Positions 440 to 63,496 of a stretch of 64,000 bases of DNA are shown piece by piece. The translations under genes and the position numbers were made by a program. Below the pieces are notes generated by a model. It worked only from the letters and a program-made list of their open reading frames with translations. It had not been told where the DNA came from and ran no database searches. The DNA comes from a virus. The DNA lies in IMG/VR virus record IMGVR_UViG_3300025154_000006, positions 1 through 64,000 of that record; one strand, given 5' to 3'. Position 1 is the first letter of the stretch. Each line of letters starts with the position of its first letter.

Positions 440-454
440 GTTCGCACTACGAAC
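440..454. promoter_or_regulatory. 15-bp palindromic site GTTCGCACTACGAAC (first of about 20 copies)
   Basis: Matches consensus GTTCGYANTRCGAAC; lies immediately after the stop codon at 438. Confidence 0.8.
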
Positions 455-487
455 CCAGAGGGCGCTTATTTACAAAGCGCCCTCTGG
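455..487 (+). terminator. GC-rich stem-loop (possible terminator or processing site)
   Basis: ccagagggcgctt / aagcgccctctgg inverted repeat; no clear U-tract. Confidence 0.45.
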
Positions 488-530
488 AAAGGAGATAAAC
501 CAAAATGATAGAAATTCATTTCTAAATCTG

Positions 531-539
531 TGATATAAT
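531..539 (+). promoter_or_regulatory. extended -10 promoter (TGaTATAAT) for the GIY-YIG gene
   Basis: Exact TGnTATAAT upstream of the ORF at 668. Confidence 0.65.
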
Positions 540-667
540 CTAAATATCGAGATTGATTATGCACAGTTTTTCTGTTACAATATATTCAACGTCCGCCGCT
601 ACTATTGCCTCTGTGCATCAGTCTCGATAACTGAGTAGTTGGTGGACGTTGTTTTATTGAGGCTAAA

Positions 668-1354
668 ATGAATTCTGGCATCTATCAAATAAGGAATAAG
701 ATTAACAATTATATATACATTGGATCTGCTGTATCTATAACAGAAAGATGGACTGAACATATTCGTAGACTTAACAAGAATAAGCACCATAGTCGTCATC
801 TTCAATCTGCCTGGAATAAGTATGGTGAAGAAAATTTTGAGTTTTCTATTCTCGAAGAATGCGAGAAAGAGCAACTGGTCGAACGAGAACAGTATTATCT
901 GGATACGCTTTGTCCTGAATATAATGTCTGTAAGATTGCATATAGTCAATTAGGAATGAAGCATACTCCAGAAGCGCGAGAGAAAATGTCTATTTCGCGA
1001 AGAGGAAAAATATGTACGGCGGAAACCCGTAAAAAACTATCAGAAAAAGCGAAGGGAAGAACTTTTTCTCAACAATGGCATGAACTTCAAAGCATATCTC
1101 ATAGAGGCTATAAGCCAACTTAGGAAGCTGTACTTAATATGTCTAAGGCCCAGTTAGGAAGAAAACATTCCCAAGAGACAAAAGATAAACAAGCTCTTTG
1201 GCATAAGGGAAGACCTCGTTCTCCAGAAACTATAATAAAAATGTCTATTGCGAATAAAGGGAAAAAGGCCAGTCCAGAGACTCGCAGAAAAATGTCAGAA
1301 GCGCGTATAAAATACCTTTTATCTTTAAAAAAAGAAAATGAGGAAACTACATGA
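668..1354 (+). pseudogene. GIY-YIG homing endonuclease with NUMOD3 repeats, in-frame TAG at 1121-1123
   Basis: SGIYQIRN..YIGSA N-terminus; HTPEAREKMS/HSQETKDKQ repeats; ORFs 668-1123 and 1139-1354 share a frame across one TAG. Confidence 0.85.
785..898. repeat. 114-bp identical segment, inverted copy at 59810-59923
   Basis: Base-by-base identity between the two GIY-YIG genes. Confidence 0.9.
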
Positions 1355-2292
1355 GTTTAACGTCACTAATTCGTAATCCAATTATTAGAAAAGAAATACT
1401 AAGCCATTGCGCAATTCCCAAAATAGATAAAATGGAAATGTTGATCCAGAGAAGAACAAACAATCCAAGCGTTCTCGGCACCGCGGTAGATTATGCAATT
1501 CGCTTCTGGCTCGAGAAGAAGCATAGTGGAATTCAAGTCAATCCACTTGTGGCAGAACTTGCGCTTACTCGGGATATTCCCGAATTTACTTTCAACAAGA
1601 AGTCGGAAGCCAGGAAGATTGTAAAACAAGCACTTGAATATATAGAACAAGCAAAGGTGCTTGACGATAGCTTTTGTTACTGGGTGTTCCAGTTGGCAAA
1701 TTTAGATCTCATCTACCGTCAACAGATCATGCCCAAGTCTATTCCAATGATCCCAAGCCAGAACGACATTAGGGAACTCAAAGACCTGGTTGCACTTGCT
1801 ATCAAAAGTTGGCCCGTTCCGCGTAGTTATTGCTTACTCAATCCTACTTTCGGGACCGCAAGTCAAATGGTAGGTGGTGCCGACGCTGACGTAATCCAAG
1901 ATAGCACAATCATTGACATAAAGTGCGTAGCAGAACCGTCTATTTCGGATGTGGTTGTGCAGTTGATTGGCTACACTTCACTTTATTCTGCTGGAACTAT
2001 TGACAAACTACCAATTGGAGAGAATATAGACAAAATTGGCGTCTACTATGCTCGTCATGGGAAGTACCTGTCTTGGGATATTGGAGAGATCTGTTCTTGG
2101 CAAGAAATCAAAGGACTTTATTTGTTTCTTGAGACTATGGTAAAACAAGGAACATTGACCACTGGCAATCGTGGACTTGGTACTGACAATGGCACTATGG
2201 AATATCTTGAAAAGGCTTTCTCGCAAGATGAAAATATTGATGTTGGTAGAATTTTTGAAGATGAAAACAACGGTTTTGATTTTTTGGTTTAA
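1351..2292 (+). CDS. PD-(D/E)XK-family nuclease-like protein
   Basis: GGADAD..IIDIK motif followed by QLIGY. Confidence 0.65.
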   Translation: MSLTSLIRNPIIRKEILSHCAIPKIDKMEMLIQRRTNNPSVLGTAVDYAIRFWLEKKHSGIQVNPLVAELALTRDIPEFTFNKKSEARKIVKQALEYIEQAKVLDDSFCYWVFQLANLDLIYRQQIMPKSIPMIPSQNDIRELKDLVALAIKSWPVPRSYCLLNPTFGTASQMVGGADADVIQDSTIIDIKCVAEPSISDVVVQLIGYTSLYSAGTIDKLPIGENIDKIGVYYARHGKYLSWDIGEICSWQEIKGLYLFLETMVKQGTLTTGNRGLGTDNGTMEYLEKAFSQDENIDVGRIFEDENNGFDFLV

Positions 2293-2305
2293 TAGGAGAT
2301 AGGCA

Positions 2306-2593
2306 ATGGAAAAACAAAGTACTGTTCGGTTTTGGGACAACATGGGAAAGAAACGCTCAATGATTGTTCATTTTCCCTCTATAGAAATTGCAGAAGCGTT
2401 TATTGAAACTTATCAAAACTATGGAAGTATTCGACAATTTAGCGCAGATGTTTATGAAAATTACGAGAAATATCCACCTTTGCAAGGAAGTAACAGGCAT
2501 GATGAATTTGTTTATATTCATGGAAAGAACGATCTGCCTACTTTTCTGGCAATTTACAATACTATTCTTTATGATAGCGGAGGCATGATATGA
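2306..2593 (+). CDS. hypothetical protein
   Basis: ORF with aggag RBS. Confidence 0.65.
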   Translation: MEKQSTVRFWDNMGKKRSMIVHFPSIEIAEAFIETYQNYGSIRQFSADVYENYEKYPPLQGSNRHDEFVYIHGKNDLPTFLAIYNTILYDSGGMI

Positions 2594-2716
2594 AGAAACT
2601 GTATAAAGTCTATGATTTAAAAAGCGATAACTGTACTCGTCAATATCTTACAGAGGCAGAGGTTGTAGAATTAAGGCATAAGGGTTATCGCGTAACCTTG
2701 ATTGAGGAGAGTTAAT

Positions 2717-2929
2717 ATGGAAACCAGAATTGGTTTTTATGTTGAAATTGAATTTGACGACGAAAGTCAAGATAATCCAGATTCCATTGCCATAATTGCC
2801 GACAACTTAGCAAATGCAATCATTGAAAAAGCCAATGGAGACGGACTGGCGGACGAAGACGAAGATGGTATTACTCTTGCGGTAGATATTTTTAATTCAA
2901 AGTTAGCGCCTGTTCATAAATATGTTTAG
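2717..2929 (+). CDS. acidic hypothetical protein
   Basis: RBS gaggag, METRIG start; very D/E-rich. Confidence 0.6.
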   Translation: METRIGFYVEIEFDDESQDNPDSIAIIADNLANAIIEKANGDGLADEDEDGITLAVDIFNSKLAPVHKYV

Positions 2930-3493: not shown

Positions 3494-3924
3494 AGACCAA
3501 CAGAAAGACTATATTTCAATGAAATTAGAAAACATAAAAAGCGTATTCTTGATGTTATTGAAAACGATGCTATTCCAGAATACTGGACCGGAAGAGAATT
3601 GAGTATATTAGCGCAGCAACTTCTTGATAATGTAACTCAAAACCACGTCAAGGAAGTTCGCAATGCGAACAAAATATAGGAGACAAGACATGGGTAAAAC
3701 TTCCGGCAATCACATTACCAGGGCAATTGAGGAAATTGATAATGCACTTTGGAATATTAAACCAGAAGATCAGAATTCCGTGCATTTAGCGCGTGCTTAT
3801 CTGATATTCTCTCTTTTCTCAGACGGATACGAACTTTCTACATCCTATCGTGTTATTAAATCTAAGCGCGGTCCAGAACTTTATAAAAAAGCCTTGAAAC
3901 TTATTGAAAAATTGGAGAAATAAA

Positions 3925-5478: not shown

Positions 5479-5760
5479 ATGAAGCGAGACCGTACTACCA
5501 AAATTGTAAATGTCATGGAAAAGAATAGGAAGTATCCCTTTATGCGCCTTCGCGATAAGTGGCTTGCGGAATTAGGATTTACCGAGGGCGCCACTGCATA
5601 CATAACAATTGTAGGCTCAGATACAATTACAATTTCTTCAAGTCCACCTATGTTGGTTAGACAAGAACTCACGCCGATTGAAATAATCAAAGCAGAATAC
5701 GCCAAACTTGGCATCCCAACTACTGAAAAGAAGAAGTATCAAGTTACTATGGTTTTATAA
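5479..5760 (+). CDS. AbrB/SymE-like swapped-hairpin DNA-binding protein
   Basis: PFMRLRDKWLAELGFTEG resembles the SymE/AbrB motif. Confidence 0.55.
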   Translation: MKRDRTTKIVNVMEKNRKYPFMRLRDKWLAELGFTEGATAYITIVGSDTITISSSPPMLVRQELTPIEIIKAEYAKLGIPTTEKKKYQVTMVL

Positions 5761-5771
5761 GGAGAAACATT

Positions 5772-6098
5772 ATGGATTTCAATAAGTTTATCGAAAATTG
5801 CAATAGATTACGCAAAGAACATCCAGAAGTTGGCAGATATAATGTCGTTTGTTCTTCTGACGAAGAGGGAAATTCATTTGGCGAAGTAACGTACAATCCT
5901 ACTGTCTGTTTTGTTGAAGATGGCGACTGGCAAAGCGTTAATTTTGCGTGGCAACCAGTTGTAAAGGAAGGTCCAAAAGAACAACTTTATTGTTCGCAAT
6001 GCGAACAGCCAGTAGAAGAGATTAATCAGAAAACTGCCGAATGTTACGAGTGCTATCTGGATAATCTGCAAAAAGCAAATAGTGTTTGTGTCAACTAG
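5772..6098 (+). CDS. hypothetical protein (DEEGN motif, Zn ribbon)
   Basis: SSDEEGNSF; CxxC pairs. Confidence 0.6.
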   Translation: MDFNKFIENCNRLRKEHPEVGRYNVVCSSDEEGNSFGEVTYNPTVCFVEDGDWQSVNFAWQPVVKEGPKEQLYCSQCEQPVEEINQKTAECYECYLDNLQKANSVCVN

Positions 6099-6646: not shown

Positions 6647-7211
6647 TACCAGAAGTTCAAATTCTAATAATCGTATATTTTTCACTTCTGATCAACACTA
6701 TGGCCATGCCAATATACTTAAGTATGCCACTCGTCTTTTTGAGAATGTTCAAGAAATGGACAGAGAACTAATTCGGCGTCACAACGAACGCGTTCAGCCC
6801 AAAGATACTGTTTATATTGTTGGAGATTTTACGCTGAATGGACATGAATTTGCCGTCAAGATAATGGAACAACTAAACGGCAATCTGGTTTTTCTTCCCG
6901 GAAGCCATGATGGAAGATGGTTTGACAAAGATCTTGGAACCGAAAAAATTCGATGCGTGGACCCAATTTACATTATTGAAAAAGCCGCACCAGTTCCCAT
7001 TATTCTGTGCCACTACGCTATGAGAACTTGGTCAAGGTCGCACTATGCTTCTTGGCATCTTTTTGGCCACTCTCACGGAAAACTTGAACCGTATGGACTT
7101 TCATTTGATATTGGAGTAGATTCGCACAATTACTATCCGTGGTCGCTTGATGAAATTGAGCAAAAGATGACAACTTTGAAGCCAATTGAAAACTATTCTA
7201 AAGGAGAATAA
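6636..7211 (+). CDS. calcineurin-like metallophosphoesterase
   Basis: DQHYGH, VGDF, GSHD, CHY, GHSH motifs. Confidence 0.9.
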   Translation: MSINTRSSNSNNRIFFTSDQHYGHANILKYATRLFENVQEMDRELIRRHNERVQPKDTVYIVGDFTLNGHEFAVKIMEQLNGNLVFLPGSHDGRWFDKDLGTEKIRCVDPIYIIEKAAPVPIILCHYAMRTWSRSHYASWHLFGHSHGKLEPYGLSFDIGVDSHNYYPWSLDEIEQKMTTLKPIENYSKGE

Positions 7212-7212
7212 A

Positions 7213-7479
7213 ATGTATATCTGTGATATTGAAACAAATAACTACGACAACGAAAGCGAAGAATACTGGATGATGCACTTTGCAATTGGCGCATTTCGTT
7301 TTAGCCTAAGATTAAATCGCGCCGATGTTATGCGTTTGTTTGGCATGTTCTTTGTTACTAGGAATAGCTCTTCTTTTGTTATTAATTATATGAATGAACT
7401 ACGAATGCCGACAGAAGGCAGGTCCAGAATAGTAACCGTTAGTCTCAAAACGCTAAACGCAAGAAAACAAGGAGAATAA
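7213..7479 (+). CDS. hypothetical protein
   Basis: RBS aggag. Confidence 0.55.
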   Translation: MYICDIETNNYDNESEEYWMMHFAIGAFRFSLRLNRADVMRLFGMFFVTRNSSSFVINYMNELRMPTEGRSRIVTVSLKTLNARKQGE

Positions 7480-7698
7480 TGAATACCATTACAGAAGCGC
7501 TTGGCCATTTGGGCGAAACACTTGCCAAGAAGGGATTTAGCGCATTGGACTTGAATTGCGAAGATGACGAGGATGTAATCATGTACGCATTGACATATAT
7601 GGAAAACCACTTGGATGACATTTTAGAGAGCGTACTTGAAGATCAAGATCGAGAAGCGAAATAAGATTAGTTTGCGTTGCGACCATTCAAACCACAAG

Positions 7699-7740
7699 AA
7701 TATCGAGGTAATTAAAATTAATTACCTCGATATTTTATTA
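7699..7740 (+). terminator. rho-independent terminator-like hairpin
   Basis: aatatcgaggtaatta / taattacctcgatatt stem followed by a T-rich tract. Confidence 0.6.
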
Positions 7741-7969
7741 CCAGGAGGTAGCCGTGGGCATTACTATTAAGATACTTGGCATATCGCCATTTGATTGTAT
7801 ACAACTTGCCAGGGATATTGAAAATCGATATGAAGTAGACGAACTTTACTTGATGAACGATTTGGTTCCGCAACCTGTTGTTTTGCCAATGACCAAAATT
7901 TTGATGTACCAGTGTTTCTTGCATTTTCACGTGTAATGTAGTACACTGTACTTGCATCTCCCTCCTCGG

Positions 7970-8022
7970 GACAGACGGCATTCTTCTTTTAGAGTTATTT
8001 TTAGCAAAGAATGCCGTCTGTC
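7970..8022. other. 16-bp inverted repeat
   Basis: gacagacggcattctt / aagaatgccgtctgtc, intergenic upstream of the replication module. Confidence 0.7.
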
Positions 8023-8040: not shown

Positions 8041-8448
8041 ATGAAACAGAAAATAAATCTAATTATCCCTTTGGGAACACCTCATCCAAATCCCTGTCCG
8101 GATTGTGGGAAAAGACTATTGCTAACGAAATTTGGCGATAAGGGTTGTGGATATGCCTGTGAAGATAGAAACAGAACTGGTTGCCGCGGAAACGCAGGGT
8201 GCCATCCCAATGGCAAGCCACTCGGAAAACCTATCGATCAGGAGGACAGACATTTGAGGGTAATCTTGCATTCTCTTATTGATCCCTACTGGCTAAACAC
8301 CCGAGCGCAAGTTCCCAAAAGAAATGCTATTTATGAATTTTTTAGAAAGAAGATGAAACTTAGCGTATTTCATGTCTCGATCTTGACAAAAGATCAGCTA
8401 AAATGGGCCATTAAGATTGCGCAGACTGATTTGAGGAAGGAGTTTTGA
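8041..8448 (+). CDS. zinc-finger protein (DUF3268-like)
   Basis: CPDCG..YAC..C.GNAGCHP..PLG, H...DP.W, FHVS. Confidence 0.7.
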   Translation: MKQKINLIIPLGTPHPNPCPDCGKRLLLTKFGDKGCGYACEDRNRTGCRGNAGCHPNGKPLGKPIDQEDRHLRVILHSLIDPYWLNTRAQVPKRNAIYEFFRKKMKLSVFHVSILTKDQLKWAIKIAQTDLRKEF

Positions 8449-9437
8449 TGCAAATAGATTTCAAAACCTCAAAACGTCAATATGATTGCCGAATAGAAAT
8501 TCAAAGAGATTTAGGCAAGCCAAATGGCATTGGCTCAACGTGGATATGGCCGTGTCCGTTTCACAAAGAAAAAACAATTGGAGGATTTCATGTTTATTCT
8601 ACCGGGTTTAAATGTTATTCGTGTGGAAGACATGGAGACATTTACGATTGGTGGGTATTTTGGAGAGATAAGCCATTATCTGATGTACTAATGGCAGATG
8701 GATTAAATATTAATGATATTACTAAACGAACATCCGAAAATGCAGCAAGAATAGAAAAAGAACTCTCGCACAAGATTTCTGAGGCAAAAAGAGCACTGGA
8801 AGAATTACAATCTACCCGGAAATGGGAAATTTATCATTCCGCACTAACGGCACACGCACGCGAAATGTATAAAAAACGCGGAATTCCAGAGTGGTATCAA
8901 GATTGGAGAAAATTTGGTTTTTGTCCTAATTTCAAAGTTTGGTATAATGGCGCAGATTACTTTACGCCAAGTTTAACTATACCAATGTTTCTTACAGGCT
9001 GGACCTGCATAAACATTCGCCATCGTCTTATTAATCCGCCAGACAATACGCCCGGAAATAAATATCGCCCAGAACGTAGCGGACTTGGTACTCAATTGTT
9101 TTTAGCAAACCCAGATAAATCATCTAACCACGAATACAAATTGATCGTAGAGGGAGAATTCAAGGCTAGTGTTTGCTACGTTACATTGGGTTCTGATAAA
9201 TGGCAAGTAGTTGGACTTCCTGGAAAAAACGCAAAGTCTGACATTGCAGAACAGATAAAGGGCGGTCTTTCTGTTGTGTGCCTAGACCCAGACGCCACAA
9301 AAGAAGCCATTACTCTTGCCAAAAAGATTGGAGGACGAATGTTTGCTTTACCAGAGAAAATAGATGACATGATTATCGCAAATAAAATAACACAGATAGA
9401 CCTTAAGAATTTAATTCGTAGTGCGAACAAAGTGTGA
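8448..9437 (+). CDS. DNA primase (CHC2 zinc finger plus TOPRIM)
   Basis: CPFHKEKT..FKCYSCG; IVEGEFKA; LDPD. Confidence 0.85.
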   Translation: MQIDFKTSKRQYDCRIEIQRDLGKPNGIGSTWIWPCPFHKEKTIGGFHVYSTGFKCYSCGRHGDIYDWWVFWRDKPLSDVLMADGLNINDITKRTSENAARIEKELSHKISEAKRALEELQSTRKWEIYHSALTAHAREMYKKRGIPEWYQDWRKFGFCPNFKVWYNGADYFTPSLTIPMFLTGWTCINIRHRLINPPDNTPGNKYRPERSGLGTQLFLANPDKSSNHEYKLIVEGEFKASVCYVTLGSDKWQVVGLPGKNAKSDIAEQIKGGLSVVCLDPDATKEAITLAKKIGGRMFALPEKIDDMIIANKITQIDLKNLIRSANKV

Positions 9438-9763: not shown

Positions 9764-10246
9764 ATGATAATTTATGATCCCAATGACGATCCTGGCGCTT
9801 TTCCCGAGGCCGAGTACGAGGACATTGACGAAAGCGGCAATCCGCCACAGACAAAAGAGCGCAAAAAGACCATGAAAGAAGCGGCGCTTTCGCCAAAGAC
9901 GCCACTACAGCAAAAAGCACTCTACGCTTGCAGAGGGCGTCAGTATTTCGGCACTACGGCGCAGCGCAAATTGTTTCAGAAGATTGAAGCCAAAGCCATT
10001 GGCGCAGATCAACAAAGCCGTCTCTGGGCAGCCTGGATGGATGATCGAATTGGGTGGGCGGCAAAATATCGCTGGAGCATAGAAATGCTTGTGACGGCCA
10101 TTGAAAACAAAGTTAAATATGACGAATGGAAATCTCGACACGCTAGTCTTGTCCTGGCGAGGCCGTCCGTAGAACAACTTGCCGGTGTGGTTGAGAACAG
10201 AATGAAGGAATTAAAACATGACGGATCAGACCAGTCTGACTATTGA
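9764..10246 (+). CDS. hypothetical protein, possible replication initiator
   Basis: Position directly upstream of the DnaC-like ATPase. Confidence 0.45.
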   Translation: MIIYDPNDDPGAFPEAEYEDIDESGNPPQTKERKKTMKEAALSPKTPLQQKALYACRGRQYFGTTAQRKLFQKIEAKAIGADQQSRLWAAWMDDRIGWAAKYRWSIEMLVTAIENKVKYDEWKSRHASLVLARPSVEQLAGVVENRMKELKHDGSDQSDY

Positions 10247-11054
10247 TCACGCAGGAACTGCCGCGGCTTGGACATTCTGGATGGGCTATTTTCGGCAGCG
10301 ACAGGGTAAATTTCCTGGCTTCGATGTTCGTAAAGCAACCAAAAAAGACGTGCTTGGTCTTGGGAATGGCGACGAATGTCCCTTTTGCCACGGAACCGAG
10401 ATAATCAAGTTTAGGGAAACGGTTCGCACTACGAACTATAATCTTGATGCGGTTCTATGTGTTTGTTGCCTGATGCGAGTTACGGCAGGATCAAGAGACG
10501 AAGAATCGCCATGGCAATCTAAAACCGTAGCAGAATTGAAAGAACTTGACATTCCAAAAGGGTCTGCGGGGTTTACCAAAATCATAAAACAAGAAACTGC
10601 CAGATTTATTCGCGATCTTGGAATATGGGTTTATCTTAGTGGTACTTACGGTTGTGGGAAAACAGCACTTGCCTATGCGGTAAAGTCAAACCTACGAGGA
10701 ATTTCTACCTATGTCAACGTGGCAGATCTATCAGACAAAATCTATGAGGCTACCGGAAAACATACCCTAAACGACTTAACCGACAGTCTAATTGGCATTC
10801 CGGTGCTTATTGTTGATGATCTTGGAGCAGAACACTCTACGGATTATCTATATTCTGTACTTTATAAGGTCATAAATGGCAGATACGCAAGAGGGTTTGA
10901 TAGGCCGACTTATATAACGTCCAACCTTCCTATAGGCGAACTCAAGGTATCTACCGTTGACAATCTTCGCAGAATTGCCAGTCGTTTATCAGACAACGAA
11001 CTTGTTGTAGAACTCGTATCAAAACAAGCAGATTATCGAGGGATGAAGAAATGA
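10218..11054 (+). CDS. DnaC/IstB-like AAA+ helicase loader
   Basis: Walker A GTYGCGKT, Walker B LIVDDLGAE, ITSNL, RIASRL. Confidence 0.9.
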   Translation: MTDQTSLTIDHAGTAAAWTFWMGYFRQRQGKFPGFDVRKATKKDVLGLGNGDECPFCHGTEIIKFRETVRTTNYNLDAVLCVCCLMRVTAGSRDEESPWQSKTVAELKELDIPKGSAGFTKIIKQETARFIRDLGIWVYLSGTYGCGKTALAYAVKSNLRGISTYVNVADLSDKIYEATGKHTLNDLTDSLIGIPVLIVDDLGAEHSTDYLYSVLYKVINGRYARGFDRPTYITSNLPIGELKVSTVDNLRRIASRLSDNELVVELVSKQADYRGMKK

Positions 11055-13070: not shown

Positions 13071-13277
13071 ATGGGACTGCGTGGACCAAAACGATCTGAA
13101 AAACACAAGAAAGTTATGGAACTTATTAAAACGAAATCTGCATCAGAGATTTCTCGCATTCTTGGAATATCAAGAGAGCGCGTAAGACAAATCATTTACG
13201 CCAATGGCGGATATGCCGAAGAGTATGTTGTGCATCCGTTTGGCAAGCATAACCAAAAGAGGAAACATGCTTCTTAG
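13071..13277 (+). CDS. HTH protein (sigma70 region-4-like)
   Basis: SASEISRILGISRERVRQI. Confidence 0.75.
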   Translation: MGLRGPKRSEKHKKVMELIKTKSASEISRILGISRERVRQIIYANGGYAEEYVVHPFGKHNQKRKHAS

Positions 13278-13512
13278 CGATAAACAGTTACTACTTCTAT
13301 TATGCGTTTCAGAAAAGAGGAAGATTGTAGACATTTCTAAAATCATTGGTCGTTCGCAGAGAACTGTACAAGTGCTTCTGGAAGAACTAGAGAAGCTTGG
13401 CTATCTTGAGAATACTTACGGTCCCAACGGTGGCGGCAAAACCGCTGGTAGGCACTTGACGCCAAGTACAATTAAACTCCTGCAACAAACAGGACACAGG
13501 AATATCAAATAG
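13267..13512 (+). CDS. winged-HTH DNA-binding protein
   Basis: IVDISKIIGRSQRTVQVLLEELEKLGYL. Confidence 0.75.
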   Translation: MLLSDKQLLLLLCVSEKRKIVDISKIIGRSQRTVQVLLEELEKLGYLENTYGPNGGGKTAGRHLTPSTIKLLQQTGHRNIK

Positions 13513-14427: not shown

Positions 14428-14630
14428 TGAAACACTATTACAAAAAAGCATTGTACATTGCCACAGAAGAAGCATACGAAAATGAAGTAATTGATACGGC
14501 AATGAAAGATTTGATAATTGGCGAAGACAAAGACTTCGCAGATAAAGAAGATTGGATTACTTGTCATATTTCAGAGTAGCTAGAAAAAGCAGAAGAGGAA
14601 GTAAATGCCAGACGGAAAAACCCATCATAA
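14427..14630 (+). pseudogene. small ORF interrupted by TAG at 14577-14579
   Basis: TAATG coupling; the frame continues ISE*LEKAEEEVNARRKNPS and overlaps the next start. Confidence 0.45.
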
Positions 14631-17307: not shown

Positions 17308-17316
17308 GGAGAAAAC

Positions 17317-49418: not shown

Positions 49419-49511
49419 ATTTTTAGACAAAAAAATAGCAGGCACAATGGCATATGTCTGCGTATCGTACGGGTATATTTCGTATATGTCTATGCGTACT
49501 TAAAAAGCATA

Positions 49512-52917: not shown

Positions 52918-53829
52918 CTATTCTCCTATTTTTTTCTTGAAATTTTGTATGCCACTGTTTTGTGAAAAACACACCCAACCACCATCTTTAATCTTGGCCC
53001 ACGAAAAACCGTCGATTTCTGGAATAATTTCTTCAAATTCGTATTGCGAACCATCAACGTGGGTATTGGCAATCATTCCAGAAGCCATGGACGGACCTTC
53101 TCTAACCGCTACCGAGCGTGTTGCGATATAAATATTCGCAATGGCATTCTCGGGTTGGGCTTTCTTTAGCGTTACCTCTTTGAGTACGGGCAGGTTCAGG
53201 TCGCGCAAGGAGAAGAATGACCAGAAAATGGTTTCCGGAACATATTCTTTATATTCGCCAAGCAAGTATGGCAGGTTGATCTTACTTTCGGTAGTAAGTG
53301 ATACGATTAGTGGTTTTGGGTTTTTCAATTCGGTCTTGAATAACGAGAATATTTCTTCCAGTGGCGTTTTTTCGTCATTGATAATTGGAACCGGGAACAA
53401 ATTGGGGGCAATTGCCAACAGTTCTTTGCATTTTTCTAGCCAGCAATAGTGCGAAGCCAATATGCCAACCCGAAGTTTCGGGTTCTTTTCCAGAAAAGCA
53501 CCAATTAATCGCTTTTCTGTCTCAAGACTATCCGGGAAGTTGGTATCGGGTTCAATGTAGATTTCATCAAAACTTCCAAGAGACAAAACATTATCAACCA
53601 GTTTTGTGATCACTTTCTGGTCATTCTTTATAATTGCTCTTGGAAGAAATGGAGATATGGTGGATAGACCAAAGTTCGCACCGTCCTCAATAAGTATTTC
53701 CATCTTTTCCGTTCCGCGTCCATGGAACGGAAAATACAGAAGACCATGCGAAATTCCGGTTTCGGTAATTAGTTTGTGATTTCCGTCCCCTGTTGAAAAT
53801 ATGTCTCTTAGAAGAATTGCTAGTTTCAT
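52918..53829 (-). CDS. protein with C-terminal SH3b-like domain
   Basis: VAVREGPS..W.KI..GGWV. Confidence 0.6.
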   Translation of the reverse strand: MKLAILLRDIFSTGDGNHKLITETGISHGLLYFPFHGRGTEKMEILIEDGANFGLSTISPFLPRAIIKNDQKVITKLVDNVLSLGSFDEIYIEPDTNFPDSLETEKRLIGAFLEKNPKLRVGILASHYCWLEKCKELLAIAPNLFPVPIINDEKTPLEEIFSLFKTELKNPKPLIVSLTTESKINLPYLLGEYKEYVPETIFWSFFSLRDLNLPVLKEVTLKKAQPENAIANIYIATRSVAVREGPSMASGMIANTHVDGSQYEFEEIIPEIDGFSWAKIKDGGWVCFSQNSGIQNFKKKIGE

Positions 53830-53853: not shown

Positions 53854-54804
53854 TTACACCATATTTGCATTTACGTCTATGTATTGTTTTACAATCTTGA
53901 TAAAGTTGGTAGGAGAAAATGGGTCTCCAATCATTCGTTCTCGCCAGGAGGAAACGTCTTCTCTTGGCTTGCAGGCAGATTGCATTGTGTCCCAAAGATT
54001 GCCAACCGCAGAATCAAGTGGATATTCCATAATGTCCCTATACTTATCCCACGACTTTACGTAATCGAAATTATCTTGTGAGTTTCCAATCCTTGGCGGG
54101 ACATTCTCTGCCATCATTAGGGTTGGTTTTCCGCGGGCAATCGCAAGATAGGCATAAGTTTCTGTGCCAATTACCAAGTCCGCTGTATCTATTTCTTTAA
54201 AGGACTGATCTGGTAAACCAAGTACATACTTGACATTGGAAATCCTGTGTAGTCCACAACTGTCCAGTGAGCGAAGGTATCTAACCGTAATGTCAAAAGA
54301 GTGTGCTTTTTGTGCCTCCAAAAGACGATCCATTATTTTGTGATTAATCTCCTGGTTGACCGGAGCGTTCCAACCATTTGTATTTGCATGAATTGGAGCA
54401 AATGTTACTTTTCGTATTATTTTGGATACTGGCGCAAATTCTCTCTGGTCGCAGAACGACCAGCCAACAATGTGTACTGGTTTTGTAACTCCAATGCGAT
54501 CTAGTACTTGTTTATGTCCTATAGACGGAACGAAAATAGCAGTCGTTTTGGGATGTGGATGACATTCTCTAAAATCATACCAAAGCGGCGGCCTTGCCGT
54601 GTGCCCAAACAGAAAAATTAGACAACTCTCGGGCATTTTATTAATTCTGTCTATTCGCCATTTTGTTACGTCGCTATCAAAAAGGGCAACCGTTGGATTT
54701 TGGGTATAGTCGGCTGGTTTCCAGCCAGCATTTCGCATGGCCTGTTCGTATGCCTGGCCCTTCTCTTGATGATCGCGAATAAAGAAAGTTGTCTTATCTG
54801 TCAT
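53854..54804 (-). CDS. GT-B-like glycosyltransferase
   Basis: FAPIH; ADLVIGTET.AYLAIARGKPT. Confidence 0.6.
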   Translation of the reverse strand: MTDKTTFFIRDHQEKGQAYEQAMRNAGWKPADYTQNPTVALFDSDVTKWRIDRINKMPESCLIFLFGHTARPPLWYDFRECHPHPKTTAIFVPSIGHKQVLDRIGVTKPVHIVGWSFCDQREFAPVSKIIRKVTFAPIHANTNGWNAPVNQEINHKIMDRLLEAQKAHSFDITVRYLRSLDSCGLHRISNVKYVLGLPDQSFKEIDTADLVIGTETYAYLAIARGKPTLMMAENVPPRIGNSQDNFDYVKSWDKYRDIMEYPLDSAVGNLWDTMQSACKPREDVSSWRERMIGDPFSPTNFIKIVKQYIDVNANMV

Positions 54805-55435
54805 TGCGCTTCCGTAGCGTCCAGATGAATTCCCACTCCTGCTTCGGGCCGGTAATACTTTCTATGATTTCAAGCCCGGCGTTCTGGAATATCTTTTCCC
54901 AAGTAGGGCGAAATAGATGCCATTCATATTGGCGATTTCGCGAAGCAAGTTGCCGAAACCCCTCTTCGTGAATACTGTTTCTGTAACTTATGCAGTTGGG
55001 GGCCTCTATGTAAAGAATGCCATTTGGCGACATAAACCTGCCAATTGCGGCTAGACTTGCTTTATGATCTATGTCTTCCGGGTCCAGATGTTCGATTACA
55101 CCCAATAGAACAACTACATCAAAGGTATGTCCAAAGTCGGTATCTTCGATCAGACCACAACGAATATCTGCTTCCGGTACTTTCTTTTTGGCAAGTTCGC
55201 AGGCAACGGGAGAAAAGTCAAGTCCGGCATACCGCGCGGTTTTACCCCACCTATCTGCAAAGTAACGCAGTAAATGTCCGTTTCCGCACCCAAGATCCAG
55301 GATGTTCTCGATATTTTGGTGTGATCGCACGGCACTGAAACAAAATTCGTCTCGTTCGTCACCAGACCATTTTTCGGGGTCGGCAATATAATACTCGTTA
55401 TATTTCTTGATCAGAGCGCTATTTGAAATATCCAT
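54794..55435 (-). CDS. class I SAM-dependent methyltransferase
   Basis: ILDLGCGNG, GLDFS, FDVV..VIEHL, PNG.L. Confidence 0.9.
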   Translation of the reverse strand: MDISNSALIKKYNEYYIADPEKWSGDERDEFCFSAVRSHQNIENILDLGCGNGHLLRYFADRWGKTARYAGLDFSPVACELAKKKVPEADIRCGLIEDTDFGHTFDVVVLLGVIEHLDPEDIDHKASLAAIGRFMSPNGILYIEAPNCISYRNSIHEEGFRQLASRNRQYEWHLFRPTWEKIFQNAGLEIIESITGPKQEWEFIWTLRKRNDR

Positions 55436-55454
55436 GCAGTTTTATCCTTTGTTT

Positions 55455-55673
55455 TTAAAAGTCGGACAGTTTGCCAGTCATAATAATTTTTTCAACCGCG
55501 GCAATGGCGGCGGCTTCGTCTATCGCATTAACGGTATGCCCAAAGTTGTCAATAACAACCATGTTCCCATCTCCAAACATCCCTCCTTCCATAATCTGCG
55601 CAATCATGTTGCCATTCCTTGTGACAATCATATAATTCTCTGCCCCTTTTTTGTACCGGATCATATCTTCCAT
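55455..55673 (-). CDS. hypothetical protein
   Basis: RBS aaggag. Confidence 0.55.
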   Translation of the reverse strand: MEDMIRYKKGAENYMIVTRNGNMIAQIMEGGMFGDGNMVVIDNFGHTVNAIDEAAAIAAVEKIIMTGKLSDF

Positions 55674-55711
55674 ATTTTCTCCTTTTATTGTCTATTTTTC
55701 GCGGTGCGAAC

Positions 55712-56344
55712 TTATTCTACGTTTGTTATAGTACCACTTATAACAGTTGGGTCAAAGGGGTGGACATCGCCACCGCGAATTATTGCGGCCTTACTCGCCT
55801 CTCTTGCGTATACGCCCGTAGTAGATACCTGGGCAAGCGCCGCAATTAGCAAGGGATTGGCCTCTATTGGCGCATCTAGTTTGAAAGTTTGCCCGGTTGT
55901 AAGCATGGTAATAAAATGGTTTCCGCTAATTGTTTTCATAGTAAACGCCGGGAATGTTCGGGTATTCTCGTCCATGTGAATAAGGCAAGCCTCTAGTTGC
56001 GCCCTGGCCACTCGCGCTTGTCCAAGTCCAATTACTGTCTCTTTCGTAACCCATCCGCCGCCAAGCGCAATAACACATAAGGCGATCCCGATAGAATAAA
56101 CCACGAAATTAGCAACTTTCTTAATGGCAATGACCATGTGGTCGAATAAATCATTCCAACGGGCATCTTCGATTGCTTTCTGCTCTGCGGCTTTTTCATT
56201 CGCAGCGCGAACCTGTTCATCAAAAAGCGCCCGCTGATCGGTTTCTACAACTATTTGATAAGCTTTGGCCTCGTCCACGACTGCTTTGTTCCCACAGCCA
56301 ACTAGAAAAAGCGCAAATAAAACAAAAGAATATATTTTTTTCAT
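55712..56344 (-). CDS. lipoprotein with a TM segment
   Basis: MKK..FLVGC lipobox. Confidence 0.65.
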   Translation of the reverse strand: MKKIYSFVLFALFLVGCGNKAVVDEAKAYQIVVETDQRALFDEQVRAANEKAAEQKAIEDARWNDLFDHMVIAIKKVANFVVYSIGIALCVIALGGGWVTKETVIGLGQARVARAQLEACLIHMDENTRTFPAFTMKTISGNHFITMLTTGQTFKLDAPIEANPLLIAALAQVSTTGVYAREASKAAIIRGGDVHPFDPTVISGTITNVE

Positions 56345-56380
56345 TTTAGTTTCTTCTCTGCAATATACCATGTTTTGGGG

Positions 56381-57016
56381 TTATTTGACGATTTTGGCAT
56401 ACGTCATGCAGACTGAAACACTTGGAACAATTGTTTTCACTATGGCCAACAGTTCGTCTATATTGCCACCACCAAAAGCCTCGTGGAACTCGCCACGGAA
56501 TATCTCTATTCCCTTAAGTGGCTCTAGGTCTTTGAGGATCTCAAATTCTGCGCCTTCGCAATCCATAATCATTACTTTGGGCGGCTTGTCGAATTTACAC
56601 ATCTTTAGAGCATCTTTTAGTGTCTTTGATTTCACAATTGGACCAGCCTTGCTACCATAAATCCTATGCGCGCCCGAGTTCTTTGTCATGTGCATTCTAA
56701 TGTCTCTGCCATCTCCAGTAATGGCAAAGTTAAAAACCTTGATTAGATCGCCAAGTCTATTCGTTTTGATATTTGCCATTAGTCTACTGTAGTTGAGCGG
56801 TGACGGTTCAAAGACGAATACCCTGGCGCCGTACTTCTTTGCCAGAGTCATACTTACTTCGCCAGTATGTCCGCCGATTTCTATTACGGTATCGCCTGGT
56901 TGCAGATTCCACGTATCGGGCCGGTACTCGGTCTGGATTTCGTCCATGATAAAATTTTCCTCCCACGAAGAATCGCAGAAAACTAGTCCGAGCGGATTAT
57001 TCATAACATTTTGCAT
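56381..57016 (-). CDS. FkbM-family methyltransferase
   Basis: VIEIGGHTG, FEPSP.N, MDCEGAE, EFH. Confidence 0.9.
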   Translation of the reverse strand: MQNVMNNPLGLVFCDSSWEENFIMDEIQTEYRPDTWNLQPGDTVIEIGGHTGEVSMTLAKKYGARVFVFEPSPLNYSRLMANIKTNRLGDLIKVFNFAITGDGRDIRMHMTKNSGAHRIYGSKAGPIVKSKTLKDALKMCKFDKPPKVMIMDCEGAEFEILKDLEPLKGIEIFRGEFHEAFGGGNIDELLAIVKTIVPSVSVCMTYAKIVK

Positions 57017-57729
57017 TATTGTCCTCGTGCTTTCTTTTTACCCATTCGATGAAGTATTATAGTGCTACTACTTTCGTATTTTTGGTTCCAAATTGGGTCA
57101 AGTAGTTTTACTTTTACGTCTGGACAATGGCACATAGTTCGGTGCCACGCCATTTGCTCGTCCCAGTCGCCAAATACTTGCCATTCTTGATACCATGTCT
57201 CAAAGAACATCTGCGTATTTTCATTAGTGCGAAAGAAGATTACGCCGGTATTTATAAACGGCATTCTCTTGTCGCCAATCATTGCCTGCGTTATCTCTCG
57301 CTCCATGATACTATTTTTGCTAATGGGAGGCGACAAAAGCGGATCTGCGAATATCTCGTCAACATACCACGGATCGCCGTTTTGCCTAACGTGATACGAA
57401 ACACAAATATCGTGATCTTTCAGATAGTCAAATCCAGTTGTCAAGTCTTTCTTGACGGCTGTATCCGCATCAAGATACAGAGTTTTCTGAAATGGACTAA
57501 GATGGTAAAGAAACGGCTTTACTTTTCCGGCAAGAAACCCAAGTTCGCCGTCTTTGCGCCGCGGATTAAGTCCGTTCCATTCTATAAATGCGGTTCCGTT
57601 AACCTGTATATCGCCAACGGTGGCAATTGGAATGTTTATATTTAGTTTCTTTATAGAGGCGACGCTTTTGCCTGCCACCTCTTTTGCCTTTTCTCCAAAG
57701 GCCATATACAGAAAGCCCTTATCGTTCAT
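57016..57729 (-). CDS. GT-A glycosyltransferase (GT8 / nucleotide-diphospho-sugar transferase-like)
   Basis: SPF..TLYLDADT, NTGVIFF, DEQ, WN, H. Confidence 0.8.
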   Translation of the reverse strand: MNDKGFLYMAFGEKAKEVAGKSVASIKKLNINIPIATVGDIQVNGTAFIEWNGLNPRRKDGELGFLAGKVKPFLYHLSPFQKTLYLDADTAVKKDLTTGFDYLKDHDICVSYHVRQNGDPWYVDEIFADPLLSPPISKNSIMEREITQAMIGDKRMPFINTGVIFFRTNENTQMFFETWYQEWQVFGDWDEQMAWHRTMCHCPDVKVKLLDPIWNQKYESSSTIILHRMGKKKARGQ

Positions 57730-58983: not shown

Positions 58984-59295
58984 TCAGTATGTGCGATAAT
59001 TGCACTTGGTATTCTCGCACCAAATGTCTTTTCCGTTGGTTGTCAACTTGTTCACAAGGCCGATCTTCTGACATTTAGGACATATTTTGTCAAGATACCA
59101 ACAGGTTTTTGCTGAGTTCGCACTGCGAAGCGGATTAAATATCTTTTCTCTGCATTCCTCGCAAAGCGGAACAAAAATGCCTAAATTGCTTTGCTCCATT
59201 ATGGCGTCTTTTTTGAAGATCGCTTTCTTGCAAACGGTGCAAATAACCGGAGAATGATCAATTAGAAATTGTACAAATTTATTAATCGGGTTCAT
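58984..59295 (-). CDS. Cys-rich Zn-binding protein
   Basis: Multiple CxxC. Confidence 0.55.
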   Translation of the reverse strand: MNPINKFVQFLIDHSPVICTVCKKAIFKKDAIMEQSNLGIFVPLCEECREKIFNPLRSANSAKTCWYLDKICPKCQKIGLVNKLTTNGKDIWCENTKCNYRTY

Positions 59296-60043
59296 TTTCG
59301 ACAACCTCCACCAACATATTTTCTGCCATCGGAACCAACGCGAGTCTTTTGGCGGCATATTTTTTCTTAAGAGTTAGAGATATTTTATCACGGGTTTCTT
59401 GAGAAACAATTTTTCCTTTTTGTGCCCTAGATATCTTCAGGCGCGCCTCGAGTGATACGGTTTTGCCTTTTTGCGCCAATGACATCTTGGCGCGCGCTTC
59501 TTCGGAAGCGCGTTTTTCATTATGGTTTTTATTCCCAGTTAAAGCAAGAGACATTTTCATACAGGTTTCTTCCGAGTGATGTTTTCCAAGCATACCTCTT
59601 TTATGTCCTTTTAGCGCCCGCGATATTTTCTCGCGGGTTTCGACGGATACGTTTTTCCTTGCGAGAGACATTTTCTCGCGGGTTTCAAAAGACAAATGTT
59701 TTCCAATATTCGCAAGAGACATCTTTAAGCGAGATTCTTCTGTGTGTCTTGTTCCTAGTTTGCTATATGCTTTTTTGCAAATATTGTATTCTGGACAAAC
59801 ACTGTCTATATAATACTGTTCTCGTTCGACCAGTTGCTCTTTCTCGCATTCTTCGAGAATAGAAAACTCAAAATTTTCTTCACCATACTTATTCCAGGCA
59901 GATTGAAGATGACGACTATGGTGTTTTGTTCTTTTTAAGAGAGAAACATGCTCATTCCACCGTCTATCAATATTAATGGCAGATCCGATATATATTTTTT
60001 CGTTAATCACATTCCTTATTTGATAGATGCCTATAAGAATCAT
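59282..60043 (-). CDS. GIY-YIG homing endonuclease with NUMOD3 repeats
   Basis: GIYQIRN..YIGSA; repeated SxETRxKMS. Confidence 0.9.
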   Translation of the reverse strand: MILIGIYQIRNVINEKIYIGSAINIDRRWNEHVSLLKRTKHHSRHLQSAWNKYGEENFEFSILEECEKEQLVEREQYYIDSVCPEYNICKKAYSKLGTRHTEESRLKMSLANIGKHLSFETREKMSLARKNVSVETREKISRALKGHKRGMLGKHHSEETCMKMSLALTGNKNHNEKRASEEARAKMSLAQKGKTVSLEARLKISRAQKGKIVSQETRDKISLTLKKKYAAKRLALVPMAENMLVEVVENEPD

Positions 60044-61540: not shown

Positions 61541-61726
61541 ATGGATACCAATACCAGTTTCATGCAGATCGTGCGCGAGGACGGCGTCCGTGACTTGGCC
61601 ATGACTATTCGCGTCAAGTTCGGCCACGCCTTGGAGATGGAACGCCTGGGCAATGACGCCCAGGCCAGCATCTTCCTTGCTGAGGCCATTGAGGCCGAAG
61701 TCAAGGTCAAGGCCGAAACCAAGTAA
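61541..61726 (+). CDS. hypothetical protein
   Basis: aaggag RBS. Confidence 0.65.
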   Translation: MDTNTSFMQIVREDGVRDLAMTIRVKFGHALEMERLGNDAQASIFLAEAIEAEVKVKAETK

Positions 61727-61803
61727 TAACAACACGGTCGCCATGCTGTCTACAAGGGTGGTAGTAGACAGCATTGGACTGTGCTTGTTGGTGTTAAGCA
61801 CAC

Positions 61804-61857
61804 AGGTACTGCCTAACCTATCTCAATAGGCACACACTAAGGAGGTTGCGATGCCTG
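61804..61857 (+). repeat. 54-bp direct repeat, copy 2
   Basis: Supplies the RBS and ATG for the ORF at 61851. Confidence 0.9.
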
Positions 61858-62084
61858 TAGCACAGGTGTTCACATCCGTAAGTGCTGCTCTTCAAGCCGT
61901 CGAGAAGATGGCTGTCGGTCAGCGTATCGTAGTCATGGGCAGAAACGCCCATGTTGTCAACGGCATTGGTTGCAAGACTGTCCAGTATGATAAACAGTCT
62001 TTGTCCGCAACCGCGCGCCCTGTCGATGGGCGCGCGTTCAACCGCGTTAACAACGGACTTGTGTCCATGAAGGAGGCAGAATGA
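61851..62084 (+). CDS. hypothetical protein
   Basis: aaggagg RBS. Confidence 0.6.
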   Translation: MPVAQVFTSVSAALQAVEKMAVGQRIVVMGRNAHVVNGIGCKTVQYDKQSLSATARPVDGRAFNRVNNGLVSMKEAE

Positions 62085-62269
62085 CCGTTATGCAAGCCTG
62101 GCAATGGATTACCTCTAGGTGGTGTGCGACTACCTGGACACCCATTGACCCAGATGTCCGTACGATCCTGCGCCTACCCGCGCTTCTGGGCATGGCGCAC
62201 GGCATGTTGGTTACAAGGGCTGGCGCGAATGGCTCACAAGAGTTCATTAAGCGCATAAACACGAGGTGA
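62081..62269 (+). CDS. hypothetical protein
   Basis: aaggagg RBS, ATGA coupling. Confidence 0.55.
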   Translation: MTVMQAWQWITSRWCATTWTPIDPDVRTILRLPALLGMAHGMLVTRAGANGSQEFIKRINTR

Positions 62270-62524
62270 AGAATGTTTGCGATCTACGAACCGATCATGC
62301 GTTTACTTGTCTCGCTTATTGTGTTGGCTGGAAATGCCCGATGTCCCGGACATGGCAATCTGGACTACATGGTAAGGCGGGTACTGGCAGACGCCAAAAA
62401 CCGTCTACAACAGCAAGCCTAAGTCGTTGCGTCTGTGCTTATCCGAACAGAGAGATAAGCACAGAACCGACCTGCTTAGGTCGCTACTCTGGTGCGGAGT
62501 TCGCACTGCGAAAAAAGGAGAGAA

Positions 62525-62800
62525 ATGGCTACCCTTCGTATTCCCAAGTCCACAAATGGCGAGAAGTCGTTACTTCCTCGTCGCTCGACTCAATGGTTGC
62601 TAGACGCCATGGGCGAGATGTTCAATGACAACTGTACCGACGCCGAGATACTTGGCGTTACTCGTGTTCAGGTCATGCGCGGCCTGGCCACGGCAGGCGT
62701 TCCTAACGACGAGATCAGGGAAATCTGGCAGGGGCAGTTCGCGTTGAAGAGCGCCCAGGAGAGGTATGACCTACTCTCCTACTTCGTGTATGGCGAATAG
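62525..62800 (+). CDS. hypothetical protein
   Basis: aaggag RBS; palindromic site directly upstream. Confidence 0.65.
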   Translation: MATLRIPKSTNGEKSLLPRRSTQWLLDAMGEMFNDNCTDAEILGVTRVQVMRGLATAGVPNDEIREIWQGQFALKSAQERYDLLSYFVYGE

Positions 62801-62998
62801 GACTACCGGAGCCCTACGCACCGCCAACGATTTCACTATATAAGTCCTATATAGGGAAATGTAGGACTTATATCGTCCATCCAAAGAAAGGAGATAACCC
62901 TATGGCCCTTGATCGTGTAGTGTTCTGGTCGTTTGCCGCATTTGCGCTATTTGGCGCCATCGCTATCCTGTTGTTCGCCTAGACACAAGGAGTTCAAA

Positions 62999-63496
62999 AT
63001 GTCTCAGAACCAAAAAACCGTAATCACGCTTGCCAATCTTGGAAGCGCCGTCGAGGTTCGCCTGGACCCCGAAATCGTCTTCGCCATTGCTACCGAGTTC
63101 AGTGATAACCCGCTTGTCCAGAAGTCTGACGAACTGGCGGCCCTGGAAGCGGAACTTGCCGTTGCGCAGGCTGGCGTTGACGGTTTTCGCACTGCGAACC
63201 AGAGGATAGGCGATCTTGCTATCCGGAAAGTTCACCTGGAACATGCCGCTCGCGCCATTCTGCTGGAAAAGAAAGGCGTCAAGAACATGGCGGAGTTGCC
63301 ATTGGCAATCCGCGGCGTGGTTGAGAAATATCGCCAACAAATCCTCGCACTGGATACCACGTACCAGGATACTTGCAAAGAACTGGCAGAAATGCGCCAG
63401 AAACTTGAAATGTCCGAGTTCAATGCCCATTTGACCGCAAAGGTCAATATCGAAGCGGCGATCTCCGCCATCATCAAGGAGGCCAACGGTGGCTAA
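62999..63496 (+). CDS. coiled-coil hypothetical protein
   Basis: aaggag RBS. Confidence 0.7.
   Translation: MSQNQKTVITLANLGSAVEVRLDPEIVFAIATEFSDNPLVQKSDELAALEAELAVAQAGVDGFRTANQRIGDLAIRKVHLEHAARAILLEKKGVKNMAELPLAIRGVVEKYRQQILALDTTYQDTCKELAEMRQKLEMSEFNAHLTAKVNIEAAISAIIKEANGG

Follow-up and report, generated by a model that had tools for sequence, protein, structure and literature searches.

The closest described counterpart of the element treated here is a 17-bp palindromic repeat of the Cluster O mycobacteriophages (Corndog and its relatives), TGTTCGGNNNCCGAACA, which has the form TGTTCGG-N3-CCGAACA (PMC4351075). According to the available sections of that article, its copies occur inside genes as well as at gene junctions, for the most part away from promoters, with a higher frequency in the non-structural arm and with no explained function; the repeat is kept among relatives, with single-base losses and indels between copies, and is not present in the M. 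smegmatis and M. tuberculosis genomes (PMC4351075). The copy number given there for Corndog is 34 (PMC4351075), and our recount in AY129335 also returned 34 copies. Here we describe a 15-bp palindrome, GTTCGYANTRCGAAC, dispersed through an uncultivated phage from groundwater metagenomes (IMG/VR record IMGVR_UViG_3300025154_000006). The record is 83,468 bp long and is called a complete phage genome; its bases 1–64,000 are the stretch of DNA that was analyzed, hereafter the window.

Among the literature searched, the Cluster O repeat is the only published phage analogue of this palindrome. Both have 7-bp arms, an identical outer GTTCG-N5-CGAAC and about 30 copies genome-wide, in and between genes, and their carriers are alike in being siphoviruses with no integrase found and with methyltransferase and glycosyltransferase genes beside the structural genes. 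The centers differ, with GG-N3-CC in Cluster O and CA-N-TG here, and the Cluster O arms are invariant whereas those of the present palindrome contain one Y/R position. Host and habitat differ as well, Cluster O phages infecting Mycobacterium and the present phage coming from groundwater. Searches for protein similarity to Corndog (tblastn, phmmer) gave no true match, and the comparison of Corndog gp76 and gp53 with a small-terminase-subunit profile was insignificant. In the available text of the papers citing it, since at least 2015, the Cluster O repeat is still described only as a conserved repeat, and no statement of a link to IclR-family regulators was found in those portions of the literature. 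What is new here is the variant palindrome and its match to an IclR operator; dispersed phage palindromes as a kind are already known from Cluster O, unexplained.

A large group of IclR-family regulators recognizes operators that follow GTNCG-N5-6-CGNAC, and the PcaR site of C. glutamicum is listed as GTTCGC-N3-GCGAAC (available part of PMC8222616); the operator of P. putida PcaR belongs to this type too (available part of PMC12455658). All 19 exact copies in the phage genome read GTTCG-N5-CGAAC and fit both the IclR class and the listed PcaR consensus, and the Cluster O repeat also fits the GTNCG-N5-6-CGNAC class. The likeness to the group-1 operators (PcaR, PcaU, PobR, CatR, HutR and others) is one of sequence form, a palindrome that in the IclR case is read by a winged-helix dimer. 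Unlike the phage repeat, with its 34 sites of which half are coding, IclR regulators act locally, at few promoter sites per genome. An unrelated phage shares the GTTCG-N5-CGAAC frame with the Cluster O repeat, and the operator class that both fit supplies a concrete and testable class of binder for the two of them; Corndog in M. smegmatis is amenable to culture and experimental manipulation. An earlier reading made from the letters alone (hereafter the sequence-only reading) had proposed that the palindrome is a binding site for a dimeric protein. The comparison sharpens that proposal to a known operator class; neither this class nor the Cluster O precedent had figured in it.

The occurrence of the palindrome is real and highly non-random. 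Exact matches to GTTCGYANTRCGAAC number 13 in the window, and none of 100 dinucleotide-preserving shuffles gave any match; allowing up to two mismatches raises the window count to 22, where the shuffles averaged 0.75 and never exceeded 4. The whole record carries 19 exact copies (reversed-pattern control, 0) and 34 copies at up to two mismatches. Our pattern search reproduced every start in the sequence-only reading, 13 exact, seven with one mismatch and two with two, and the fear voiced there that a scan by eye had missed copies proved groundless, with no further window copy within two mismatches. The accompanying figure of about 0.001 chance hits in 64 kb is also right (4^-12 × 2^-2 × 64,000 = ~0.00095). 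The copies in the window are listed below by position, with the open reading frames (ORFs) and ribosome-binding sites (RBS) around them and with their counterparts in two related contigs, G001 (24 kb) and G003 (17 kb).

440–454: exact copy; intergenic, 1 nt past the stop of ORF 16–438; abuts a hairpin with a 13-bp stem (455–487)
3656–3670: exact copy; intergenic, 19 nt before ATG 3690; orthologous copy in G001 (4229)
5992–6006: exact copy; within ORF 5772–6098; identical in G001 (8359)
9414–9428: one-mismatch copy; 3' end of the primase-like ORF 8445–9437
10422–10436: exact copy; within the IstB-like ORF 10218–11054; G001 orthologue (12284) differs only at Y and R
15036–15050: exact copy; within ORF 14605–15159; G001 orthologue (17068) differs only at Y and R
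17012–17026: exact copy; intergenic, 11 nt before ATG 17038; left border of a 0.5-kb segment missing from G001
17518–17532: exact copy; overlaps the stop of ORF 17333–17518, 22 nt before ATG 17555; right border of the 0.5-kb segment
18740–18754: exact copy; within the RNA-ligase ORF 18145–18951
22895–22909: exact copy; between the minus-strand ORFs 22911–23327 and 22437–22880, 1 nt past the upstream stop and 14 nt ahead of the ATG
32457–32471: one-mismatch copy; within ORF 32323–32760 (minus strand)
37143–37157: exact copy; in the middle of the 2881-aa ORF 32760–41405 (minus strand)
42552–42566: exact copy; intergenic, between a hairpin (42576–42605) and the RBS and ATG (42530) of the next minus-strand gene
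43739–43753: exact copy; abuts the stop of ORF 43754–44299 (minus strand), 52 nt before ATG 43686
48409–48423: exact copy; within the portal ORF 47847–49445 (minus strand)
49114–49128: one-mismatch copy; within the portal ORF 47847–49445
53037–53051: one-mismatch copy; within ORF 52918–53829 (minus strand)
55697–55711: two-mismatch copy; abuts the stop of ORF 55712–56371 (minus strand); G003 orthologue (15321) has one mismatch
56198–56212: two-mismatch copy; within ORF 55712–56371 (minus strand); G003 orthologue (14811) has one mismatch
59116–59130: one-mismatch copy; within ORF 58984–59358 (minus strand); degenerate in G003
62499–62513: one-mismatch copy; intergenic, 34 nt after a hairpin (62432–62465) and 11 nt before ATG 62525; G003 copy (7764) exact
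63185–63199: one-mismatch copy; within ORF 62933–63496; missing at the orthologous place in G003, hence lineage-specific

Over the whole genome, 9 of the exact copies are intergenic and 10 coding, so that 9 of 19 lie in the non-coding DNA that makes up 13% of the genome. Copies at gene junctions are typically wedged between a stop codon, 0–1 nt away or overlapping, and the next RBS, and seven or eight intergenic copies lie 11–22 nt ahead of a start codon. The observations of the sequence-only reading on this point hold in detail: copies 440, 17518, 22895, 43739 and 55697 follow the stop of the upstream ORF by 0–1 nt or overlap it, copy 62499 stands 11 nt ahead of an ATG with the RBS AAGGAG, and the coding copies use all three reading frames. 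Copies occur about every 2.5 kb overall and about every kilobase among the first early genes, the densest stretch being 8 copies within 6.4 kb (genome 62.5–68.8 kb). The regularity of spacing did not differ significantly from random (coefficient of variation 0.79 vs 0.96, P ~0.10).

Exact copies, 19 in the actual genome, averaged 9.2 after synonymous codons had been shuffled 300 times within 146 gene calls with the intergenic DNA left unchanged. As this mean is about the number of intergenic copies left, the 10 coding copies drop to ~0.2. Isolated GTTCGCA half-sites are not enriched in the whole genome (19 vs ~13.5 expected), which makes the palindrome the functional unit; the idea of a Chi-like half-site was dropped for the same reason.

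The related contigs were found by scanning IMG/VR for the motif itself, and G001 and G003 both come from one sample; the same scan returned a near-identical contig, G002. G001 and G003 are syntenic with this phage at 70–85% nucleotide identity, cover 81.6 to 20.8 kb and 73.3 to 54.4 kb, respectively, and carry 11 copies in 24 kb and 13 copies in 17 kb at up to one mismatch. At least 11 copies stand at orthologous places. Across 11 orthologous pairs, the 12 core positions differ at 11/132, the Y, N and R positions at 14/33 and the 12-nt flanks at 122/264, a figure that indels inflate because the flanks were compared ungapped. The remaining copies are lineage-specific, their counterparts resembling decayed or not-yet-formed sites, and in coding DNA sites have been gained and lost through point changes. 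The conservation of the core relative to the flanks reflects strong purifying selection on it, so that the motif is maintained by selection, in genes and at junctions alike, while individual copies turn over. Two comparisons that the sequence-only reading had put forward as possible refutations, frequency after codon shuffling and conservation in relatives, thus favor a selected motif: the coding copies are lost on synonymous shuffling, and the same motif recurs in two relatives of 70–85% identity. Portal-based searches for relatives found none, and when viral and metagenome contigs were scanned with the helicase and the small terminase subunit, distant phages and nothing closer turned up. Among contigs of four sequencing runs, at thin coverage, none of the differences listed (40 of 95) falls inside a copy.

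The motif has the form GTTCGC-N3-GCGAAC and is a full 7-1-7 palindrome of 15 bp. In a logo of 52 sites within one mismatch, taken from three genomes, information is confined to these 15 bp and the flanks carry none; the arms read GTTCG[C 74%, T 26%]A, and 76% of sites have C or G at the center. The sites are C..G, C..A or T..G at the variable pair, with T..A in none of the 52, so that at least one arm is always perfect. Counted by hand on the sense strand, the variants comprise 7 C..A and 6 T..G, and there is no strand bias relative to transcription; since the two are equally common on the transcribed strand, pairing in RNA is not selected. The invariant A7 and T9 belong to the symmetry, and positions 7 and 9 are unable to pair in a hairpin. 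A replication-linked polarity of the C..A and T..G variants was hinted at in this phage (Fisher estimate ~0.04) and contradicted by G001 and G003. At the level of sequence, these analyses establish the palindrome as real, conserved, selected as a whole and of IclR operator form.

That a protein binds the palindrome, which protein this is and what its binding achieves, we infer. Our preferred reading, held with somewhat less than even confidence, is that the copies are duplex-DNA sites for a symmetric winged-helix dimer of IclR-type specificity, most likely phage-encoded, which would regulate or block transcription genome-wide. The double-stranded copies, of the form GTTCGC-N3-GCGAAC, would be bound by a winged-helix protein of two-fold symmetry, one subunit reading each half-site GTTCGCA; one half may be GTTCGTA, and no copy is weakened in both halves. 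The sites stand at short gene junctions where these are present, between a stop and the next RBS, and elsewhere inside genes, and the bound protein would regulate transcription or form a roadblock chiefly in the early arm, modulating or blocking transcription across the genome from junctions and from within genes. A few copies may act as ordinary operators at promoters. The genome has 17 strong sigma-70-like sites, two of which (67670 and 78289) have the motif center at about -52, and one copy lies between divergent predicted promoters at 73577. The sequence-only reading's proposal of dimeric-protein sites is thereby supported in outline, the prediction resting on 7-1-7 symmetry, lack of strand bias, a conserved core and the match to the IclR operator class; the functions suggested with it, a roadblock network, genome organization or partition, are hypothetical. 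If a protein does bind, phages would mark, regulate or exploit a whole genome through one short site, kept in genes despite its amino-acid cost; if none binds, the repeat is stranger still. As position matters little, marking of phage DNA and soaking up of a host regulator are also possible roles.

The binder would most likely be encoded by the phage itself, and the best candidate is an effector-less protein of the replication module.

13267–13512 (plus strand): candidate binder, 81-aa winged-helix protein; replication module; weak Pfam hits and a fold model

Its Pfam hits are to HTH_36 and TrmB, weak and below the curated cut-offs. Its G001 counterpart shares 79% identity and retains the putative recognition helix, and the AlphaFold2 model of the phage protein (predicted local distance difference test score, pLDDT, 70.8) has three helices plus a wing. 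Foldseek found the model to be alike to winged helix-turn-helix domains of the MarR, DtxR, Csa3 and IclR families (E 0.01–0.04). The sequence-only reading had named three possible binders, the helix-turn-helix (HTH) genes at 13071 and 13267 and an AbrB-like gene at 5479; conservation and the winged-helix model make the product of 13267 plausible, and the other two are weakened. The gene at 13071 (13071–13277, encoding a 68-aa sigma-70 region-4-like HTH protein) is an insertion of ~183 nt with no counterpart at the syntenic position of G001. The AbrB-like gene, intact here at 5479–5760, is split in G001 by a GIY-YIG endonuclease gene (7209–7979 of that contig), the fourth gene of this type encountered.

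Several observations weigh against the preferred reading. IclR proteins are normally ~250 aa long with an effector domain, and none was found in family scans (Pfam and/or PHROGs) that took in ~105 phage proteins and left out ~40 small ORFs; integrase, ParA, ParB and S24 peptidase were likewise not found in these scans. The fold matches of the 81-aa protein show no preference for IclR-family chains and point to a generic winged helix, compatible with that family but not assignable to it; an hhalign comparison with an IclR N-terminus places the HTH in register at a non-significant E of 0.081; and the gene has no adjoining motif copy. The absence of T..A is only marginally unexpected, since by our own estimate the set of 59 sites with no more than two mismatches should contain ~3 of them. 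About 29 of the 34 sites are not near a recognizable sigma-70 promoter and about 5 are near one, and a -10-like hexamer lies at promoter spacing in only 4 of 68 site-directions. Since the sites are mostly away from promoters, a classical operator role fits only a minority of them, and the Cluster O authors, in the available sections of their article, likewise concluded negatively on a promoter or operator role of their repeat (PMC4351075). A role of the motif as a -35 element was rejected, the 4/68 standing against a background of 1.8%. Tests of 72 intergenic regions for another promoter motif found only the Shine-Dalgarno sequence enriched.

Cluster A stoperators are asymmetric sites, oriented with transcription and bound by the immunity repressor of a temperate phage. 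Like the palindrome, they occur as dozens of copies of one short site across a phage genome, many at short gene junctions; the palindrome differs in being symmetric without strand bias, and neither a repressor nor an integrase is among the scanned proteins. The analogy to stoperators drawn in the sequence-only reading, with the proviso "but symmetric", therefore fails on asymmetry, orientation and the missing repressor and integrase, and holds for the dispersed copy pattern alone. The KorB operators of plasmid RK2 and the N15 centromere sites are dispersed too, as short palindromes at promoter-proximal, distal and intragenic places on one replicon. They need a ParB-family protein. Partition, also suggested before, is an unlikely role for the palindrome, since neither ParA nor ParB nor an integrase is among the proteins scanned here. 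A LexA site was rejected: the half-sites look like those of the Gram-positive SOS box but are everted relative to it. LexA motifs vary and include GTTC-N7-GTTC in the available part of PMC8565304.

Next to a phage-encoded binder, the protein could be an IclR-family (PcaR-like) regulator of the host, in which case the sites would tie phage expression to host metabolism or titrate a repressor as decoys; we consider this unlikely. The motif equals the cellular IclR operator consensus (available part of PMC8222616), the scanned phage proteins include no full-length IclR protein, and the indifference to position and the many coding copies suit titration. The same 15-mer also stands around an IclR gene in a bacterial contig. 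A scan of genome contigs returned at least 120 stretches with the 15-mer, of which 80 were listed, and was not informative on the host. Among the matches listed, an Acetobacteraceae contig (G008:C187) has exact copies at 3880 and 5100 and a one-mismatch copy at 2057, around an IclR-family gene and neighboring operons. This IclR/PcaR-like gene (2085–2867, minus strand) has PDB hits to 2ia2 (1e-34) and PcaR 8eju (5e-30), and the copies are probably a small natural regulon. In a more specific form, which we regard as distinctly unlikely, 34 host IclR-type operators, multiplied by replication, would titrate a scarce PcaR/IclR repressor and switch on catabolic or glyoxylate-type operons. Host operons would then be turned on without any phage metabolic gene, and in mycobacteria the Cluster O repeat would work in the same way. 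To our knowledge, local IclR regulators are not known as targets of phage titration. The absence of the Cluster O repeat from the M. smegmatis and M. tuberculosis genomes, reported in the available text, speaks against a host regulon there (PMC4351075).

It is very unlikely that the copies serve as recombination hot spots, or as linkers at module borders, promoting gene exchange between related phages. Copies 17012 and 17518 flank a 0.5-kb segment (17027–17517) specific to this phage, where G001 has a single copy (19037), and insertions abut copies at 65889 and 67645. By hand tally, about 11–12 of 76 gap borders lie within 35–40 nt of a copy, against ~4 expected by our own estimate, and the Cluster O authors describe the same pattern in the available sections (PMC4351075). 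Contigs from two other runs (X7 and X8) match the window from 15064 onward and are unlike it before that position, a strain break point 14 nt after copy 15036–15050 that can be counted on the same side. Against this, about 28 of 38 gaps are free of copies on both sides (hand tally), the comparison is confounded by the preference of copies and break points alike for gene junctions, the scanned proteins include no site-specific recombinase, and the selected mid-gene copies go unexplained. The motif is weakly tied to mosaic break points.

The chance that the copies are recognition sequences for the terminase small subunit, in effect many pac-like sites, is slim. The one gene in question, genome 73006–73554, is the only minus-strand gene in the early arm. 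It encodes a protein with an N-terminal HTH, and the divergent predicted promoter region in front of it contains an exact copy 22 nt from the ATG. This upstream region is kept in the homologue P0003, whose translated upstream extension shows the same motif at that place. An earlier idea that the gene encodes a repressor with its operator (an "immunity switch") was dropped, as family scans identify a terminase small subunit. A profile search gathered a family of 40 representatives, in which 18 of 36 aligned members match PHROG 4102 and 4 of 36 match Sf6_terminase; the phage protein itself matches PHROG 4102 at E 6.8e-4. A PDB sequence search gave nothing, an Atlas search yielded no more than leads, and the structural model is poor (pLDDT 56.8), with insignificant TetR/SlmA fold hits (E 0.04 or worse). 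By these profile matches, the product is assigned as the terminase small subunit. A ring-shaped terminase small subunit would be expected to recognize phased direct repeats rather than a 7-1-7 palindrome, and one copy beside one gene, out of 34, is a weak link. Other phages with this protein family also lack a dispersed palindrome and have promoter-linked ones only: L145–L158 carry TGTGAC-N4-GTCACA only within repeated promoter-like modules. L135–L138, among the distant phages from the scans for relatives, have no dispersed palindrome either. In L145–L158 (IMG/VR contigs with a distant small-terminase homologue), four or five modules of the form TTGTCAAG-N9-TGTGAC-N4-GTCACA lie within ~3 kb upstream of the terminase gene and look like a set of regulated early promoters. 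In the groundwater phage, the small subunit gene lies ~22 kb from the likely large subunit gene, and a TATAAT 6 nt before its ATG suggests that the transcript may be leaderless.

An RNA or single-strand hairpin that terminates, processes or represses translation just before the RBS is about as improbable. The copies shortly before start codons fit it, and of the 18 strong hairpins, 3 have a copy no more than 35 nt away. No T-run follows the copies, though, and complementarity of positions 6/10 and 7/9 would be useless in a hairpin; on the sense strand the mismatched C..A is as common as the wobble T..G, and ten exact copies lie inside genes, in all frames. An intrinsic terminator was rejected on similar grounds, the palindrome running through the would-be loop and showing no strand preference.

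Least probable of all is that a modifying, restricting or nicking enzyme targets the palindrome, or that it is a selfish repeat resembling repetitive extragenic palindromic (REP) elements or miniature inverted-repeat transposable elements (MITEs): the only variable half-site position is a C to T change, an N6/N4 DNA methylase is encoded in the phage, and the 15-mer is part of repeat elements in two unrelated bacterial metagenome-assembled genomes (MAGs), but enzyme targets are normally avoided rather than enriched, the methylase sits in a variable cassette, and the phage copies have no conserved flanks and arise and decay by point changes at orthologous places, where partial matches rather than insertions are seen. 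The two MAGs, G006 and G007, are among the matches listed, and the 15-mer is embedded there in longer repeats, unlike the phage copies. G006 (Eggerthellaceae) has ~45 exact copies, each with A or T at the center, in a REP-like element (GTGGGC-hairpin-GCAGCTG); variation in the stem of this element is accompanied by compensating changes. By this sequence context the repeat is judged unrelated, sharing the 15-mer by chance.

The phage genome is organized in two arms. The plus-strand arm runs from ~60.6 kb across the junction of the record to ~20.8 kb and holds small early genes and replication genes (primase, DnaB-like helicase, IstB-like loader, single-stranded DNA-binding protein, RNA ligase). 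The minus-strand arm, from ~60.5 to 21 kb, holds a methyltransferase/glycosyltransferase cluster, portal and tail genes, a gene for a 2881-aa protein and an endolysin gene. The record ends in a 127-bp terminal repeat, which is probably an assembly overlap, since contig G002 crosses the junction at 99.6% identity. The 2881-aa protein (32760–41405, minus strand) stands at the tape-measure position and matches nothing in Pfam. A cluster at window 54794–57729 (minus strand), upstream of the packaging genes, encodes two S-adenosylmethionine-dependent methyltransferases, one of the FkbM type, and a glycosyltransferase.

No copy of the palindrome lies in recently acquired DNA, namely an array of attC-like sites at 69.9–73.0 kb, three GIY-YIG genes and the capsid-gene intron region. 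The GIY-YIG genes encode free-standing homing endonucleases and are related to one another (window 668–1123 and 59282–60043, the latter on the minus strand; genome 80922–81602). In the array (genome 69917–72993), sites with GCCTAAC...GTTAGGC ends and predicted folds of -34 to -43 kcal/mol separate small cassettes, one of which (70780–71544) encodes the N6/N4 DNA methylase. An integron integrase for the array was not found among the scanned phage proteins, and the length of the array differs between this phage and G003.

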